From Promethearchaeota archaeon (GTDB lineage Archaea > Asgardarchaeota > Lokiarchaeia > Sigyniarchaeales > SOKP01): a DNA stretch of 23,928 bases. The notes beneath the pieces are model-generated. The model did no database searches. It saw nothing but the letters and a program-made list of their open reading frames with translations, and was not told where the DNA came from. Both the position numbers and the translations under genes were made by a program. This document shows, piece after piece, positions 767 through 8,187 of this stretch (its first letter is position 1; the number at the start of each line of letters is the position of its first letter). The stretch is taken from NCBI GenBank assembly GCA_019058015.1, contig JAHLWH010000047.1, forward strand, positions 1 to 23,928, in the 5' to 3' direction.

Positions 767-2350
767 GTGAAAAAAATGAATAATAAAGCAGTAAATAGCA
801 AATTGAATTTAGATTTCTCAATGGTAAAAAAAGCAAGAGAGACAGCAAAAACTATTGCTTTAGACACCCAAAAATTTATAGATAAACACACTACAACCTC
901 AATTGAAAGAACTATCTGTAGATTGCTTGGTATAGATGGTATAAATGAATTTGGTGTCCCTTTACCAAACATTGTTGTGAATAATATAAAAAAAGGCAAG
1001 GGGCTTGGGATTGGTGCTGCTATCTTTATTGGAAATGCAATTCTCCAAAAAAATCTATCACCGCAAGAGATTGCAGAAAAAGTATCAAAAGAAGAAATTG
1101 ATCTGACAAAACTTCCTATGAATGATTTAATTGAAATAAAGAGGGCTATAACTAATTTAGCTAAAAAAACTTTAGAAAAAATAAAAAAAAATAAAAAAAA
1201 GAGAGAAGATTATCTTGAAAAATTTGGTGAAAAGGAAGGTCCTCTTCTATATATAATTGTTGCAACAGGAAATATTTATGAAGATATCACTCAAGCAAAA
1301 GCTGCCGCAAAACAAGGAGCAGATATCATTGCAGTTATAAGATCTACTGGACAGAGTCTTCTTGATTATGTGCCTTATGGTGCAACAACAGAAGGATTTG
1401 GTGGTACTTATGCAACTCAAGAAAACTTTAGGCTTATGAGAAAAGCTTTAGATGAAGTTGGAGAAGAATTGGGAAGATATATAAGATTAACTAATTACTG
1501 TTCTGGACTTTGCATGCCTGAAATAGCTGCTATGGGAGCATTTGAGAGACTTGATGTGATGCTTAATGATGCTCTTTATGGAATATTATTTAGAGATATC
1601 AATATGAAAAGAACCATTATTGATCAATACTTTTCAAGATTGATTAATGGATTTGCAGGTGTAATTATTAATACTGGAGAAGATAATTATCTAACTACAG
1701 ATGATGCATTTGAAGCAGCTCATACAGTGCTTGCTTCTCAATTTATAAATGAACAATTTGCTCTACTTGCTGGTTTAAAAGAAAAACAACTTGGATTGGG
1801 TCATGCTTTTGAAATGAATCCTGAGTTGGAAAACGGATTTTTATATGAACTTGCACAAGCTCAAATGGCAAGAGAAATATTTCCTAAAGCCCCCTTAAAA
1901 TATATGCCCCCAACTAAGTTTATGTCGGGAAATATTTTTAAGGGCTATATTCAAAACGCTTTATTTAATATGATAACTATTATGACTAATCAGAAAATCC
2001 ATCTGCTTGGAATGCTAACCGAGGCCATACACACTCCCTTTATGTCTGATAGAGCATTATCTATAGAAAATGCGAAATATATTTTTAATAATATGAAGTC
2101 TTTAGGAGAAGAAATTGCTTTTAAACGAGGTGGAATAATGGAGAAGAGAGCTAATGAAGTTCTAAATAAAACCTATAAACTTCTGAAAGAAATAGGAAAA
2201 GAAGGCTTATTCAGTACAATCGAAAAAGGAATATTTGCTGGAATAAAGAGGAAAATAAATGGTGGCAAAGGTTTGGAAGGTGTGGTTGAGAAAGAAAAGG
2301 ATTATTTTAATCCATTTATTGAATTAATGGTTCAAGAAAATCTAATGTAG
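767..2350 (+). CDS. kamD: D-lysine/L-beta-lysine 5,6-aminomutase alpha subunit
   Basis: Conserved motifs YIIVATGNIYED, ADIIAVIRSTGQSLLDYVPYGATTEGFGGTYATQENF, NYCSGLCMPEIA, INTGEDNY, KYMPPTK and GMLTEAIHTPF. Length is typical. Start may be the in-frame ATG at 776. Confidence 0.96.
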   Translation: MKKMNNKAVNSKLNLDFSMVKKARETAKTIALDTQKFIDKHTTTSIERTICRLLGIDGINEFGVPLPNIVVNNIKKGKGLGIGAAIFIGNAILQKNLSPQEIAEKVSKEEIDLTKLPMNDLIEIKRAITNLAKKTLEKIKKNKKKREDYLEKFGEKEGPLLYIIVATGNIYEDITQAKAAAKQGADIIAVIRSTGQSLLDYVPYGATTEGFGGTYATQENFRLMRKALDEVGEELGRYIRLTNYCSGLCMPEIAAMGAFERLDVMLNDALYGILFRDINMKRTIIDQYFSRLINGFAGVIINTGEDNYLTTDDAFEAAHTVLASQFINEQFALLAGLKEKQLGLGHAFEMNPELENGFLYELAQAQMAREIFPKAPLKYMPPTKFMSGNIFKGYIQNALFNMITIMTNQKIHLLGMLTEAIHTPFMSDRALSIENAKYIFNNMKSLGEEIAFKRGGIMEKRANEVLNKTYKLLKEIGKEGLFSTIEKGIFAGIKRKINGGKGLEGVVEKEKDYFNPFIELMVQENLM

Positions 2351-2395
2351 AATTATTTGTTAATTATGAATTAAATAATAATAAGGAGAAAAAAT

Positions 2396-3160
2396 ATGAA
2401 TAACAATTTCAATAAAAACCTTGATTTGACAAAAATTAGGCCATATGGAGATACTTTTAACGACGGAAAAGTGCAAATAAGTTTTACACTTCCAGTAGAA
2501 GACGATGAAAAAGCTATAGTGGCTGCAAAAATATTGGTTAGAAAAATGGGGGTAAAAAATCCTTCTGTTGTATATCATTGTCCACTAGATAAAGGATTTA
2601 CCTATTTTGTTGTTTATGGAAATTTAAATCAAACTATAGATTATACAGAAATTCATATAGATGCTATAGATAAAGAAATTATGTCTATAGAGCAGATAAA
2701 TGAATATATAAAAGAAAATATTAAACGTAAAATTATAATACTTGGAGCAACAACTGGAACAGATGCACACACCGTAGGTATAGATGCTATAATAAATAGG
2801 AAAGGTTATAAAGGTCATTACGGGCTTGAGAGTTATGAAATGGTAGAAGCTTATAATATGGGTAGTCAAGTAAAAAATGAAGAGTTTATTAAAAAAGCAA
2901 TTGAATTAAACGCGGATATATTGCTTGTATCTCAAACAGTTACACAAAAAAATATTCATCTAAAAAATCTAACACAGCTTGTAGAACTTTTAGAAAGTGA
3001 AGGATTAAGAGAAAAGATTATTTTGATTTGCGGAGGCCCTAGAATAACTAATGAGCTTGCAAAAGAATTAGGATATGATGCAGGATTTGGACCTGGTAAA
3101 TATGCTGAAGATGTAACCACATTTGCTATCAAGGAGATAGTAAATAGAAAAAAGCTTTAA
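2396..3160 (+). CDS. kamE: Lysine 5,6-aminomutase beta subunit (AdoCbl/PLP-binding)
   Basis: N-terminal PYGDTFNDGKVQISFTLP dimerisation domain; base-off/His-on B12 motif DAHTVG; PLP lysine motif RKGYKGHYGLE; SQTVTQ and GGPRI...GYDAGFGPG. Shine-Dalgarno-like AGGAG lies just upstream. Confidence 0.95.
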   Translation: MNNNFNKNLDLTKIRPYGDTFNDGKVQISFTLPVEDDEKAIVAAKILVRKMGVKNPSVVYHCPLDKGFTYFVVYGNLNQTIDYTEIHIDAIDKEIMSIEQINEYIKENIKRKIIILGATTGTDAHTVGIDAIINRKGYKGHYGLESYEMVEAYNMGSQVKNEEFIKKAIELNADILLVSQTVTQKNIHLKNLTQLVELLESEGLREKIILICGGPRITNELAKELGYDAGFGPGKYAEDVTTFAIKEIVNRKKL

Positions 3161-4330
3161 TTATACTTTCCTTTTCCGCCAAATAATGAAAATCACAAGT
3201 GTTGGTACTGCTATTATAATTAAAATAATTATTAACAATACAAACAAATCCAATTCTACATCCCATACATTTTCATTTAATGAAGAAAAATCAGGATCAA
3301 AATATTTTATAATATTAAAAGCATAATATGTTGTTATCATGGAAGAATAAGATGTAGAACCATCTGATTTTGATTCTGAAAAGCCTCCATCGATTGGATT
3401 CTGAGATTTTAGAACCCACTGAAGGATTGTTTGAGAATCCAGCTGACTAGAATCCAATAAATTTACGGTAGAAACACAAAAATATGTTGAACTAATAAAA
3501 CTATTAGAAGGAGACTCTGTTTGAGAAAACCCACCATAATTTGAAGAATCGAAAATATCAGAAACGTAAAAATTCATCATATATTGAATAATTGAATCTT
3601 TTTGCGATGATAGATTATTAATATTTGTAGTAAAATTAACTCCTAAAACTGCATAATGGGTACTAATTATCGATGAATTTAATGTTGTATTTCCGCCAAA
3701 ACCACCATCGGAATGATAACAACTAATTATCCATTCGGTATGTTTCTGACTGTCGGAAATATTTTCTGGACTTAATAGAGACAAAATTTTAACTGAAAAA
3801 TATGTATGAAATACGGTTGGAGAGGAACTATTATAATTTTTAAAACCACCATTTTCATGTTTTGATTGATTTATCCAATTGATAATTTCATTTTTATTAT
3901 CTGTACTAATTTTATCTAAGTTATCTCCTATAAGATTTAATGAGAGGAGTAAATAATAAAGGGTTACCAGAGAATTATCAGTCAAATTATCAAGTTCGGT
4001 TTGAACATTATGAGCAAGCATTGTTGCCATAATATCTAAATCTTCTTGAGTTTCAAGTAAATTTAAATCTTTAAGCATTTTTAAAGCATAGTAAGTTGAT
4101 TGTTCGGAAATGGTGTCTTCTTCTAAGATTGAATTTGAATAGCCTAAATTTTCAATTCTATTATTGAGAATAAAATCAGTTAAGTAAGTTCTTCTTGATC
4201 TTGCAGTTACTGGGGAAAATATTGCACCTAATGAAACCGTAATTAAACTCAATAAAAATAGTATAATAAAAATTTTATTCCATCTAATTTTTAAAGTCAC
4301 TCTTATTGTGGGTTCTCTTTTTAGATTCAA
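3161..4330 (-). CDS. Prenyltransferase/squalene-oxidase repeat (alpha/alpha barrel) protein, secreted and C-terminally membrane-anchored
   Basis: Repeated W..(S)Q..DGGF.......(S)TYYA..L units (ENGGF, SDGGFGG, NYGGF, IDGGF); N-terminal hydrophobic signal-like segment; C-terminal TM helix followed by RKRKV. Start is uncertain (TTG). Confidence 0.8.
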   Translation of the reverse strand: MNLKREPTIRVTLKIRWNKIFIILFLLSLITVSLGAIFSPVTARSRRTYLTDFILNNRIENLGYSNSILEEDTISEQSTYYALKMLKDLNLLETQEDLDIMATMLAHNVQTELDNLTDNSLVTLYYLLLSLNLIGDNLDKISTDNKNEIINWINQSKHENGGFKNYNSSSPTVFHTYFSVKILSLLSPENISDSQKHTEWIISCYHSDGGFGGNTTLNSSIISTHYAVLGVNFTTNINNLSSQKDSIIQYMMNFYVSDIFDSSNYGGFSQTESPSNSFISSTYFCVSTVNLLDSSQLDSQTILQWVLKSQNPIDGGFSESKSDGSTSYSSMITTYYAFNIIKYFDPDFSSLNENVWDVELDLFVLLIIILIIIAVPTLVIFIIWRKRKV

Positions 4331-4428: not shown

Positions 4429-5964
4429 TCATTCGATTTTGAAAATTTCCGAGATATCATGATATAATAGATTTGGATTTGAAGCAAATTGATTCGAGTT
4501 AATAAATAATTTCCTAAAAGATGGTAATGATCCTAATATTGAGCCTCCTAGGAAAATTGCAAATTGTTTGTTCTCGGGTATAAAAAAATTAAATAATTCA
4601 GATACATCTTCATAATAAGTAGGGATTGCGGCTATTGATTCAGGATATTCTTTTATAGGTATTTCTTGACCTTGAATTTTCTGGCCACAAAACGGACAAA
4701 ATACATGTTCTGAATCTGGGGGCAATTTTTTTTTACAATGTGGACATTTCTTTATTCCCTTTTGTTTCTTTTTATCACTCAATTCTGTGCCTACTTTTAA
4801 AGGAATATCAATTGTTACTGTTTTCATAGTATTACCACAATATGGACAAATTTTAATTCCCGAGCTTAAATCAACTAAGTTTCCACATTTCTCACAAGTA
4901 TCTTGAAGGGTAGATGTTCCCTCATGGGTAATTAATGATTTTTCTGCTGGAATTTGTGGTTCTTCTGGAATTGCTGGGATTGGTCCTAAATTAGGTAAAA
5001 TTGTAATTAATTCTGCTTTTAATCTTTCAATAAAACCATTATAGGAAGAATTTCCACCTGATACAACTATATTTTTTAATAATAGTGCCCAATATTCACT
5101 ATTTATATTTCTAAGGCAACTGATAACAGCTTCTGGAATGCTTTGTATATTATAACCTAAAATTGAAGGTTGAAATAAAATTTCAGGAGAAAGATACATA
5201 GACTCATTATAAATATTAATTGTCTCTCCATCAGGTAGGACATAACTTTGTTTTTCTGTTTTTACTTTTGGACTGATAGAGGAAGGATCTAAGGCAATAT
5301 AACAAAATTTCTCAATAATTTCTCTTAAAATTACTTTTTGAGCAGAAAATTCTAAATTAATGCCTTGTCTTAATAATAATGATTTCAAATTAAGACTTAC
5401 ATCATATCCGGCTAGTGTTAATATCTGCACAGCTGGATAATAAATCTTTCCATCTATTATGGGAACTATATTAGTTATACCTTCTCCACTCTCAATAACT
5501 AAACCTGTAGTTAAACCAACAGAAAATAAAGATAATAATGGAGAGGGGATCATCATTAATTTTTTAACACGATGTGTCTCAAAAAATAATCTTGCAATAT
5601 ATTCTTTTGTTTCTTTAGGGATACTGATCGGTTCTGCATATAATATTTCATATTCGATGGGATTTATTCTTAGCAAATTATAAAAAATATGATTTATAAT
5701 TTCATAAAAGTTTTCCCACTGAGTAATATTTCCTCTTGAAATTGGATAGGTGATTTTTAAAACACCTCTCATCTTCATACAGTCCTCTCCGACATAAATC
5801 AATTTACCCCTGGCTTCTCCTATATCAACCATGATTGATCTATATTTCTCAGTACCAGTCATACATGGAAATACAACTCTAGGAATTTGATCCCCAGCAA
5901 AACCTATTTTTACATATGCTTCACCAATATCAATGATAATTGGAACATTTACAGGTATTTCCAT
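4429..5964 (-). CDS. Actin-related protein (Asgard-type) with an inserted double zinc ribbon
   Basis: Colinear actin motifs: IIIDIGEAYVKIGFAGD..PRVVFP, YVGE, YPISRGNITQW, FFETHRV, LSLFSVGLTTGLVIESGEGITNIVPI, LAGYD, EKFCYIALD, SYVLPDG, PEILFQPS, NIVVSGG, FLGGSILGSL. Insert carries CEKC/CPYC/CPHC/CPFC. Confidence 0.92.
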   Translation of the reverse strand: MEIPVNVPIIIDIGEAYVKIGFAGDQIPRVVFPCMTGTEKYRSIMVDIGEARGKLIYVGEDCMKMRGVLKITYPISRGNITQWENFYEIINHIFYNLLRINPIEYEILYAEPISIPKETKEYIARLFFETHRVKKLMMIPSPLLSLFSVGLTTGLVIESGEGITNIVPIIDGKIYYPAVQILTLAGYDVSLNLKSLLLRQGINLEFSAQKVILREIIEKFCYIALDPSSISPKVKTEKQSYVLPDGETINIYNESMYLSPEILFQPSILGYNIQSIPEAVISCLRNINSEYWALLLKNIVVSGGNSSYNGFIERLKAELITILPNLGPIPAIPEEPQIPAEKSLITHEGTSTLQDTCEKCGNLVDLSSGIKICPYCGNTMKTVTIDIPLKVGTELSDKKKQKGIKKCPHCKKKLPPDSEHVFCPFCGQKIQGQEIPIKEYPESIAAIPTYYEDVSELFNFFIPENKQFAIFLGGSILGSLPSFRKLFINSNQFASNPNLLYHDISEIFKIE

Positions 5965-6203: not shown

Positions 6204-7694
6204 ATGATTCAAACTGTCATATTTCGGCTTTATCCATCAAAAACTCAAGAGAAAAAGTTAGATGAAATTTTCACAATCCATAATAGGATGAAGCGTATTG
6301 GTTACAAGATATTATTTAACGGAGAGAACAACATTCAACAAAAGTTAATGGCGCGATGTCGAAATAATCCCTATGTTAATACTATTCTAATTGAAAACAA
6401 TACAAAGCTCGATCAACAGAAAACATGGCTTAAAAAAAGAGAAAAGTACATGAGAAAGCAACATAAAGAAATTGAAAAAAAAATAAAAGAGATTAAAGAA
6501 AAAAATAAACGAGATAGGCGACTAAAAGGATTATACTCGCGGTTATCGTCAGTTCAAAATCGATTAGACCACCTAAAATTAAAACCAATAGTGTTTGGCG
6601 GAAAGCGATTGTTTAGAGAAAAAATATTAGGAAAAATCAGTGAGCAAGAATTTCAGATTAAACGAGATTCATCGTTTTGTTGCGTTGGAAAAAAGCAAGG
6701 AGTCAATTTAAATATCAAAATCTTAGACGATAAGACTTTAAAAATTCATACTTTTCATAAAGATAGGAATAAGAAATGGCTCATTATACCCTTTTCAGTT
6801 AATCAGAAACAAGAAATATGGTTTAGACAAATCCTTATAGTAGAAAAATACACGATAACTATTGTAAGACGGATAATTAAAGGGGATTTACGGTATTTTG
6901 CCCATGTATCTTACGAAATTCCCAAACCAGATTTAAAATATGGGTTTAAGAATGGTGCAATTGGTCTTGATTTTAATTACAATTTTGTATCTTTATGTAA
7001 TGTTGATAAAAAAGCAAGTTTAAAGAGCTATCAAGAGATAAAGTTTGGAAATTTGCATTTGTATAGAAAGGATAAACGAATGGATTACATTAGCTATAAA
7101 ATGGATAAAGTCGTTAATTATTGCATTAACAAGCGAAAAGGACTCATAATTGAAGATTTATCATTTGAACAGAACTTTTCATACAATAAAAAACTTAACA
7201 GAAAATTAAGTAATTTCAAAAAAAGAGCATTAGATTTATTAGAAAGAAAATGCATTAAAGAAGGTGTAAGTATGAGAAAAGTTCATCCTGCTTACACATC
7301 TTTAATCGGTAAATATAAGTATTTACGCTCACATAATTTATCTACTCACGTATTGGCGAGTTATGTGATTGCTCGAAGAGGTTTAGGGTTTGGGGAGTCT
7401 ATTCCACCCATTTACAAGTGGTTGCTCTCACAAGTCGGGGGCTTCGTAAAACCCCGTTTGAAAAAGGGCAGTCCCTACCGTAAATGGTCACAAATCCACG
7501 ACTTCTTCAAGTACAGCGGGATAACTTCCTTCAAGACTTCCGATGTAATGCGAAAAGCATCACAAATGAAGGATGTCTTGAATTCGGCGACGAGCGCACA
7601 GCCCGATAACCTTAAGGCTGGTCTTTCCAATAACGGAAAGATTGATGATTGGAATAAATTTTGGAATTTTATAGAAATTACCAATTTTTTATAA
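6204..7694 (+). CDS. tnpB: TnpB-related RNA-guided endonuclease family protein
   Basis: N-terminal FRLYPSKTQEKKL; IVFGGK; RuvC-I AIGLDFN (D256); RuvC-II LIIEDLSF (E317); VHPAYTS.IGKYKY; HVLASYVIARRGLG where the RuvC-III motif is expected. Confidence 0.88.
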   Translation: MIQTVIFRLYPSKTQEKKLDEIFTIHNRMKRIGYKILFNGENNIQQKLMARCRNNPYVNTILIENNTKLDQQKTWLKKREKYMRKQHKEIEKKIKEIKEKNKRDRRLKGLYSRLSSVQNRLDHLKLKPIVFGGKRLFREKILGKISEQEFQIKRDSSFCCVGKKQGVNLNIKILDDKTLKIHTFHKDRNKKWLIIPFSVNQKQEIWFRQILIVEKYTITIVRRIIKGDLRYFAHVSYEIPKPDLKYGFKNGAIGLDFNYNFVSLCNVDKKASLKSYQEIKFGNLHLYRKDKRMDYISYKMDKVVNYCINKRKGLIIEDLSFEQNFSYNKKLNRKLSNFKKRALDLLERKCIKEGVSMRKVHPAYTSLIGKYKYLRSHNLSTHVLASYVIARRGLGFGESIPPIYKWLLSQVGGFVKPRLKKGSPYRKWSQIHDFFKYSGITSFKTSDVMRKASQMKDVLNSATSAQPDNLKAGLSNNGKIDDWNKFWNFIEITNFL

Positions 7695-7788: not shown

Positions 7789-8187
7789 TTAATTATTGAC
7801 CTTTTTTAATTCAACAAAATAATTCTGAAGTTGAATTTCTGAAAATTTCTTAAATTCAATGAACAAATCTAATAAAATTTCGCCCCATTGATTTAATTTA
7901 ACCCAACCACCCCCCCCATGACCTCCTTTTCCAATAGAGACTGCAGGTATTCCTGTTCTTTCCTCAATCCTCTTTAAAATACTCCAAGCATATTTATAAC
8001 TATAATGACAAATTTCTGATGCTTTTAATAAAGATTTTCCTTTGTTTTCTTTAATAGTCTGTAGTAATTTTGACCAGCCATCCCCCAAAATATTTTGATT
8101 ATTATATTTAAACCAGATTTTAAACTCAAAATTGAGTTTTTCAATACGATCTATGATTTCTTTAGAATATTTTTTTTTAATTGCCAT
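7789..8187 (-). CDS. ModE-family (N-terminal domain only) winged-helix transcriptional regulator
   Basis: LGDG..KLL.TI......SL.KA.....SYKYAW..LKRIE...G..AV...KGGHGGGG..L pattern typical of the ModE HTH domain. No molybdate-binding Mop/TOBE domain. Confidence 0.85.
   Translation of the reverse strand: MAIKKKYSKEIIDRIEKLNFEFKIWFKYNNQNILGDGWSKLLQTIKENKGKSLLKASEICHYSYKYAWSILKRIEERTGIPAVSIGKGGHGGGGWVKLNQWGEILLDLFIEFKKFSEIQLQNYFVELKKVNN

Follow-up and report, generated by a model that had tools for sequence, protein, structure and literature searches.

Work on actin biology in Asgard archaea has to date covered Lokiactin, profilins and gelsolins, and the actin-related proteins (ARPs) of these archaea are known only as branches of trees. 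Candidatus (Ca.) Lokiarchaeum ossiferum encodes four actin homologues, three of which are listed as ARPs by GenBank accession (PMC9834061), and in the Asgard ARP tree of Rodrigues-Oliveira et al. 2022 (PMC9834061) the three homologues other than Lokiactin cluster with ARPs; that tree was built on a trimmed alignment, the passages of the paper concerned with these proteins mention no zinc-ribbon insert, and the accessions that it gives may include a member of the family described below. Eukaryotic Arp5 (INO80) carries inserted modules, a DNA-binding domain and a 'grappler', as set out in the passages on Arp5 in PMC11754651. Here we describe a 511-aa protein encoded on the reverse strand of a 23,928-nucleotide stretch, referred to as the window, of Promethearchaeota archaeon contig JAHLWH010000047.1 (assembly GCA_019058015.1). 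It is an order-specific archaeal ARP with a zinc-ribbon module nested inside the actin fold, and we report its anatomy, conservation and distribution. The principle of an actin fold plus an insertion is shared with Arp5, but the modules of eukaryotic ARPs show no likeness of sequence or fold to the Lokiarchaeal insert.

A zinc-ribbon module nested in an actin fold

The evidence gives good support to a lineage-specific ARP in which a collinear and otherwise complete actin fold carries a flexibly tethered zinc-ribbon module. The parts of the gene and protein are listed here in the order of the protein, with confidence in predicted structure given as the predicted local distance difference test (pLDDT).

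4429..5964, minus strand: whole gene (open reading frame call, stop codon included), encoding the 511-aa actin-family protein with its zinc-ribbon insert
4990..5964, minus strand: N-terminal part of the actin core, residues 1-325, covering subdomains 1, 2 and 4 and the larger part of 3; it holds the D-loop (residues ~36-58) and the motifs for nucleotide binding
4903..4989, minus strand: N-linker, residues 326-354, with a conserved Pro-rich LGxIP start and a variable remainder (conservation 0.53; pLDDT below 50 at 336-352)
4828..4902, minus strand: zinc ribbon 1, residues 355-379, D-T-C-x-x-C-G ... C-P-x-C-G, CxxC-x12-CxxC
4750..4827, minus strand: inter-ribbon spacer, residues 380-405, Lys-rich here and 15-27 aa long across the family (pLDDT below 50 at 383-403)
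4675..4749, minus strand: zinc ribbon 2, residues 406-430, C-P-x-C-x-K ... F-C-P-x-C-G
4609..4674, minus strand: acidic C-linker, residues 431-452 (median net charge -4; conservation 0.49)
4432..4608, minus strand: re-entry strand and C-terminal actin core, residues 453-511, aligned to actin chain 325-368 (pLDDT 83-93)

The family hidden Markov model (HMM) matches the protein over positions 1-510 with 762 bits. Pfam Actin (PF00022) is found in two stretches flanking the insert, the better of them at residues 8-325 (E 3.1e-72; 243.8 bits against a curated cut-off of 27 bits), and a phmmer search of the PDB returned actins, not Arps, as its top matches (E 9e-72 to 8e-67), led by 9wc4_A 'HC1 actin' (E 8.9e-72) with eukaryotic actins next. 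In this alignment query residues 9-329 correspond to actin chain residues 3-322 and query residues 461-503 to residues 325-368, such that the insert replaces only a short loop of subdomain 3. The loop joins a helix ending near actin residue ~320 to a strand starting near ~328, and there is good support for placing the module in the loop of actin residues about 321-327, on the barbed-end face and following the last of subdomain 3's long helices. The insert is ~135 aa long and interrupts the fold from residue 325 to about residue 460. An earlier note on this DNA had proposed an actin interrupted by a double-zinc-ribbon insert in subdomain 3, and the Pfam and PDB phmmer results bear this out; the segment it named (4590-4990) corresponds to residues 326-458, and its Cys pairs (4687-4896) to C357 through C426.

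The motifs that had been read from the sequence are all present: CEKC-x12-CPYC in ribbon 1 (C357, C360, C373 and C376), the Lys-rich spacer, and CPHC-x12-CPFC in ribbon 2 (C407, C410, C423 and C426). The anticipated domain parse was also recovered, with Actin in two stretches, Pfam Zn_ribbon_3 over its cut-off at residues 405-430, i.e. ribbon 2 (31 bits, cut-off 27), and Pfam DZR at 357-427 narrowly under its own (25.8 bits, cut-off 27.3); DZR is listed for most homologues. Both ribbons conform to the zinc ribbon/DZR pattern CxxC-x12-CxxC, and zinc binding is predicted. The insert is like the DZR/zinc_ribbon families (PF12773, PF13248, PF13240) in having two Cys4 ribbons of the form CxxC...CxxC, but members of those families are usually terminal domains of unrelated proteins, whereas the pair here is nested inside the actin fold.

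Alignment of the protein with 61 homologues that are 49-91% identical (62 sequences in all) confirmed that the insert is real and constrained. All eight Cys, together with G361, F422, P424 and G427, are invariant, in agreement with the expectation that homologues would share the insert, and the two ribbons (column conservation 0.75 for ribbon 1 and 0.70 for ribbon 2) are more conserved than the three linkers (0.47-0.53). The corresponding value for the core is 0.78, and no part of the protein is more conserved than the D-loop segment 36-58 (0.86). We consider the chance that the insert is an assembly or gene-calling artefact, or a mobile insertion (an intein or a transposon remnant, for example), to be negligible, as the same in-frame architecture is present in the 80 kept loci (of 122 relatives) and in 118 of the best 120 homologues, the Cys are invariant, and Pfam and profile scans of the protein gave no intein or transposase signatures.

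The full-length protein was modelled with AlphaFold2 from the 62-sequence alignment, and its pLDDT averages 73.6. Most of the core lies at 80-95 and the re-entry segment 451-470 at 83-87; confidence is low for residues 36-73 (the D-loop and subdomain 2), the ribbons reach 60-74, and all three linkers are below 50. Foldseek matched the model to solved actins with target-normalised TM-scores (TMt) of 0.81-0.87 (E about 1e-31), and a four-subdomain actin fold is thus predicted. When the insert was modelled alone (66 sequences) the predicted TM-score (pTM) was 0.30, with ribbon pLDDT of 74-90 (79-90 for ribbon 1). Together these models suggest that the ribbons are independently folded beads on flexible linkers and have no fixed mutual orientation.

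The insert fold gave no Foldseek match at E <= 0.001, and a PDB profile search with the insert gave only generic ribbons (Rpo12, eL43, Nop10, NOB1, YacG) at E values no better than 1e-4. A phmmer search with the 141-aa insert against 1.84 billion representatives yielded 78 matches at E <= 1e-3 and five at E <= 1e-10. The latter include one known family member and three short proteins (191-291 aa) covering most of the insert, which are probably fragments of family members. No stand-alone donor of the insert was found among these representatives, the other hits being generic multi-ribbon proteins, and an ESM Atlas search with the insert gave no usable match.

Distribution, variation and relation to Lokiactin

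A search of 5.8 billion proteins returned 376 matches, the best 120 of which are all 457-521 aa long with an Actin domain; a zinc-ribbon Pfam family is listed for 118 of these best 120. A scan of one genome per prokaryotic species gave 122 relatives, and locus comparisons drew on the loci of the best 80 of these. The family HMM was then searched against 400 genomes of the phylum, 135 from the window's GTDB family, 19 from three sister families of the same order, and 246 others. Full-length matches (positions 1-509, E <= 1e-171) are present in 128 of the 135 genomes, the window's own genome counted, and long but weaker matches (E 1e-116 to 1e-175) in 15 of the 19. The 246 genomes of other orders or classes contain no full-length match, and the best among them (E 3e-96) ends near position 324, which is the level of Lokiactin. 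The family is confined to one GTDB order within Lokiarchaeia/Promethearchaeia. A pan-Asgard distribution was considered and rejected, since every strong match in the GTDB-based survey falls within one family/order. NCBI labels on some hits from metagenome-assembled genomes (Thor-, Odin-, Hermod-, Hod- and Heimdallarchaeota) conflict with their GTDB placement and were not relied on. Because the family is restricted to one archaeal order, the insertion was presumably acquired independently of those in eukaryotic ARPs, and the family says little directly on the eukaryotic ancestor.

Two individual genomes merit comment. The copy in G194 (C12:3330-4412) has five in-frame stops (three TAG, two TAA) and matches only positions 80-441, and is probably a pseudogene or an assembly error. 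Loss of the gene from G146, a complete genome of the same genus, was considered and rejected, as the syntenic contig stops about 2.8 kb short of the gene.

Family members are already in public databases under automatic names, including 'zinc ribbon domain-containing protein', 'actin-related protein' and 'centractin' (JGI). The member in Promethearchaeum syntrophicum is 557 aa long and named 'zinc ribbon domain-containing protein', and that in Ca. L. ossiferum (P0223) is 499 aa long and named 'hypothetical protein'. The family is therefore present in both cultured Lokiarchaeia, for which antibodies, cryo-tomography and transcript assays exist according to parts of two reports (PMC9834061, PMC13716822). 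Literature searches aimed at the insert returned no paper describing a zinc ribbon inside an Asgard actin homologue; the reading covered passages of PMC9834061, PMC12050087, PMC13716822, 10.1101/2025.02.26.640444, 10.1101/2020.10.19.343400, PMC13247210 and PMC10936438, and an entry for the family may exist in supplementary tables. The suggestion in the earlier note of a possibly undescribed Asgard ARP class thus stands in that the family is conserved and its insert undescribed in the literature found, but it has to be narrowed to a single order, and the proteins themselves already have database names.

Variation of the insert was followed in an order-wide alignment of 16 sequences, including eight open reading frames (ORFs) from sister families. 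Ribbon 1 is present in all 16. Ribbon 2 is absent from three, L084 (G138), L087 (G279) and L090 (G282), all of which are from sister families. Ribbon 1 is probably the functional core of the insert, as it is always kept while ribbon 2 is lost in some lineages; the double ribbon as first proposed therefore holds for ribbon 1 throughout, and ribbon 2 is dispensable in some lineages.

Most of the order-wide sequences also share a Pro-rich LGxxP start and an A/S-x-E-F/Y motif in the acidic C-linker, and the window's own small clade lacks the latter. These features bear on the idea that the insert is an intramolecular regulator, which folds over the barbed-end groove or acts as a zinc/redox switch and keeps the ARP inactive until release. 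The conserved A-x-E-F/Y motif and the confidently predicted re-entry segment suggest that the insert is in part packed against the core, and Cys4 sites are redox-sensitive in general. We nevertheless regard this idea as improbable, because the models do not place the ribbons against the core with confidence and the window's own clade does without the A-x-E-F motif.

A sister-family subclade (L084-L086, L091; P0199-P0236), which includes the proteins named from both cultured Lokiarchaeia, has an additional element beyond the ribbon(s): a conserved basic motif, D-R-K-E-K-K-L/I-L/I-K-K-T, and behind it a helix-like stretch and then E-S-E-Y-G. A regular expression for the L/I-L/I-KKT ending matches 25 of 38 proteins of this subclade, with close variants in others, and one of 121 in the window's family. 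LKKT resembles the actin-binding motif of WH2/thymosin proteins. A WH2 reading of the motif was not adopted, as it precedes and does not follow the helix, and the window's family lacks it.

The genome that contains the window also encodes a Lokiactin (L081:1498-2637, 380 aa) and a second ARP (379 aa), both of which have a short loop at the insert site and no insert. The core of the 511-aa protein is 38% identical to this Lokiactin over 320 aligned columns with 5 gap positions, and there is no large core indel relative to Lokiactin besides the insert. The two proteins are alike in fold, collinear sequence, D-loop length and nucleotide-binding motifs; they differ in that Lokiactin has no insert, keeps Gln and His at the catalytic positions, and falls in a separate clade. 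When the best match to Lokiactin in each genome is compared across the order, identity is 86-96%; among members of the insert-bearing family it is 37-55%. A second Lokiactin-like gene, 79-83% identical to the first, is present in G268, G257, G239, G233, G237, G265, G256 and G277, which points to a duplication of Lokiactin within the window's family.

To examine relationships, 43 actin-family sequences were placed in a quick maximum-likelihood tree; they were taken from the window's genome, from five other genomes of the order and from ten elsewhere in the phylum, with one fungal protein (P0258). One duplicate ORF was dropped beforehand, and only columns with at least 60% of rows filled were used. 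All 14 rows of insert-bearing proteins fall in a single clade, supported at 100 in the Shimodaira-Hasegawa-like approximate likelihood ratio test (SH-aLRT), and its branching follows taxonomy. The Lokiactins and the second ARP group form separate clades, and the tree leaves the relation among the three groups unresolved; the Lokiactins group with the fungal actin-like sequence P0258, the sole eukaryotic sequence included. Judged by the 38% identity and the separate clade, the 511-aa protein does not appear to be a Lokiactin, which agrees with the distinction drawn in the earlier note. No insert-free orthologue was seen outside the order in this tree. Elsewhere in the same class, three long ORFs from other orders, L152 (810 aa), L154 (853 aa) and L155 (570 aa), contain an actin domain scoring 82-184 bits to Pfam Actin; they look like other, unrelated actin-fold fusions or expansions.

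Nucleotide site and candidate roles

The residues D12, G14, K19, E158, G160, G162, G303 and G304, aligned to actin motifs, are invariant in the 62 sequences; the residues of the phosphate-1, phosphate-2 and adenosine motifs are kept, and ATP binding is predicted. In actin, Gln137 and His161 position the attacking water. The phmmer alignment to PDB actin shows these replaced by S141 and N165, respectively, in the 511-aa protein; position 165 is almost always Trp in the family, and Asn in the window's protein. The pair expected of a polymerising, ATP-hydrolysing actin thus appears to be missing, and from the combination of kept nucleotide-binding residues and replaced catalytic Gln and His we infer ATP binding with little hydrolysis. 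Together with the near-unaltered core and the tethered Cys4 module at the barbed-end face, these lost catalytic residues make up a conserved structural peculiarity of the family.

Our preferred interpretation, which we offer tentatively, is that the protein is a substoichiometric, hydrolysis-poor ARP in which the ribbon module, tethered at the barbed-end face of subdomain 3, serves as a hook that binds partners. The core would bind ATP and hydrolyse it poorly, and the ARP would work at low copy number beside Lokiactin and not as a bulk polymer. It would dock through its pointed end, with the D-loop entering the groove at the barbed end of an actin-fold partner, presumably Lokiactin, and from its own barbed-end face the ribbon module would extend on linkers some 25-30 residues long, ready to hook a protein partner. 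The outcome would be a filament-end or filament-side adaptor or a terminator.

Several observations suggest these steps. The D-loop is highly conserved, which suggests that it docks in the groove at an actin-fold partner's barbed end, as D-loops do in actin and Arp2/3 according to passages of PMC9295785. A role other than bulk polymer is suggested by the fast evolution of the family (37-55% identity, versus 86-96% for Lokiactin) and by Ca. L. ossiferum transcripts, where those for Lokiactin are severalfold above those for the other three actin homologues, among which the 499-aa member may be one (PMC9834061, in its passages on expression). A protein partner is favoured because the universal ribbon 1 is net acidic (median net charge -2 across the family) and the Lys-rich spacer is not conserved.

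Several observations weigh against a hook of this kind. Identity to Lokiactin is even across the four subdomains (0.34-0.38), the ribbons resemble only generic zinc ribbons in the PDB profile search, gave no Foldseek match at E <= 0.001 and so point to no particular class of partner, and the conserved gene block contains no cytoskeletal partner gene. In addition, Arp3 has an insert in the equivalent loop yet templates the daughter filament, so an insert there need not block subunit addition. A scheme that conserves the pointed face and remodels the barbed one was also considered and is unsupported at the grain of subdomains, as identity to Lokiactin is flat.

A homopolymer is an alternative to which we give a low probability. 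The protein would form a second actin-like filament system, with ribbons that project to bundle filaments or to carry cargo, comparable to ParM- or crenactin-type systems with adaptors. The D-loop and hydrophobic-plug region are of actin-like length, the core lacks a large indel besides the insert, and long flexible linkers could let the module exit the intrastrand interface. However, the catalytic Gln and His are replaced, the insert loop lies at the longitudinal contact of F-actin, and there is no adaptor-like partner gene in the conserved block; specifically, no ParM/ParR- or crenactin/arcadin-type adaptor gene is among the conserved neighbours, which are a ModE-N-like regulator, a toroid protein and FolD.

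The ribbons might instead serve to bind nucleic acid (DNA or RNA) or to attach to the machinery of transcription or translation, making this a nucleic-acid-associated ARP like the nuclear Arps. The best ribbon likenesses, weak as they are, are to RNA polymerase subunit P/Rpo12, ribosomal eL43, Nop10 and NOB1 (E 1e-3 to 5e-2), the spacer in the window's protein is Lys-rich, and Arp5 holds nucleosomes by its inserted DNA-binding domain and 'grappler' (PMC11754651, in part). These likenesses are, however, at the level of any zinc ribbon, and the Lys-richness of the spacer is not conserved (conservation 0.47; median net charge +1 across the family). Ribbon 1 is net acidic, the family medians being -2 for ribbon 1 and +1 for both the spacer and ribbon 2, and this near-neutral to acidic ribbon charge would count mildly against nucleic-acid binding. 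We consider a nucleic-acid role rather improbable.

Returning to the tethered hook beside Lokiactin, such a function would provide the first functional handle on how the archaeal actin cytoskeleton is linked to other cell structures, and an independent archaeal case of the 'actin fold plus insertion' route behind the eukaryotic Arps. A more specific and novel proposal, which we think unlikely as a whole, is that Lokiarchaeia evolved independently the insertion of a partner module into an actin fold, which is regarded as a eukaryotic habit, and in this way gained a filament-end adaptor in one polypeptide, docking Lokiactin by its D-loop and using ribbon 1 to tie filament ends to a cellular target. 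In the sister subclade with the cultured strains, the LKKT-containing motif might even recruit actin monomers and so act as a built-in nucleation-promoting element.

Gene neighbourhood

The ARP gene lies in a conserved gene order consisting of a ModE-like gene, sometimes a CBS gene, the ARP gene, a toroid protein gene and FolD. Its two neighbours in this order are as follows.

3161..4330, minus strand: downstream neighbour, a 389-aa protein with an N-terminal signal/anchor, a prenyltransferase-like alpha-alpha toroid and a C-terminal membrane anchor (Pfam Prenyltrans, E 2.3e-27)
7789..8187, minus strand: upstream neighbour, a 132-aa ModE-N-terminal-like helix-turn-helix protein (NCBIfam ModE_repress, E 1.3e-8, under the cut-off)

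The toroid protein gene is directly downstream on the same strand at 75 of the 76 evaluable loci of the window's family, with a median gap of 152 nt, and at seven of eight sister-family loci. The ModE-N-like gene is upstream on the same strand at 72 of 74 evaluable loci of the family and at four of eight in the sister families, and FolD is nearby at 73 of 81 and six of eight loci, respectively. By prediction the toroid protein sits outside the cell and leaves just 4-6 residues in the cytoplasm as a tail. Use of this synteny as functional evidence was rejected, given that FolD belongs to the block too, that the toroid protein, with so short a tail, is predicted as extracellular, and that the upstream gene is a ModE-type regulator; the synteny is treated here as conserved gene order and not as evidence of partners. 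One metatranscriptome run contained 0.05 of the sampled words.

The window departs from the common arrangement at two places. A TnpB-related ORF of 496 aa (6204-7694, plus strand; TIGR01766 35.6 bits against a cut-off of 32, with no Pfam match) lies between the ModE-like and ARP genes, which directly adjoin each other at the closest related locus (L002), and it looks like a recent mobile-element insertion. On the downstream side, positions 767-3160 (plus strand) contain genes for the D-lysine 5,6-aminomutase alpha (E 1.7e-274) and B12-binding beta subunits, a place taken in most relatives by FolD, a 151-aa protein of no known function and a DRG-type GTPase. In the small clade formed by the window, L001 and L002, the conserved block has been rearranged in its downstream half.

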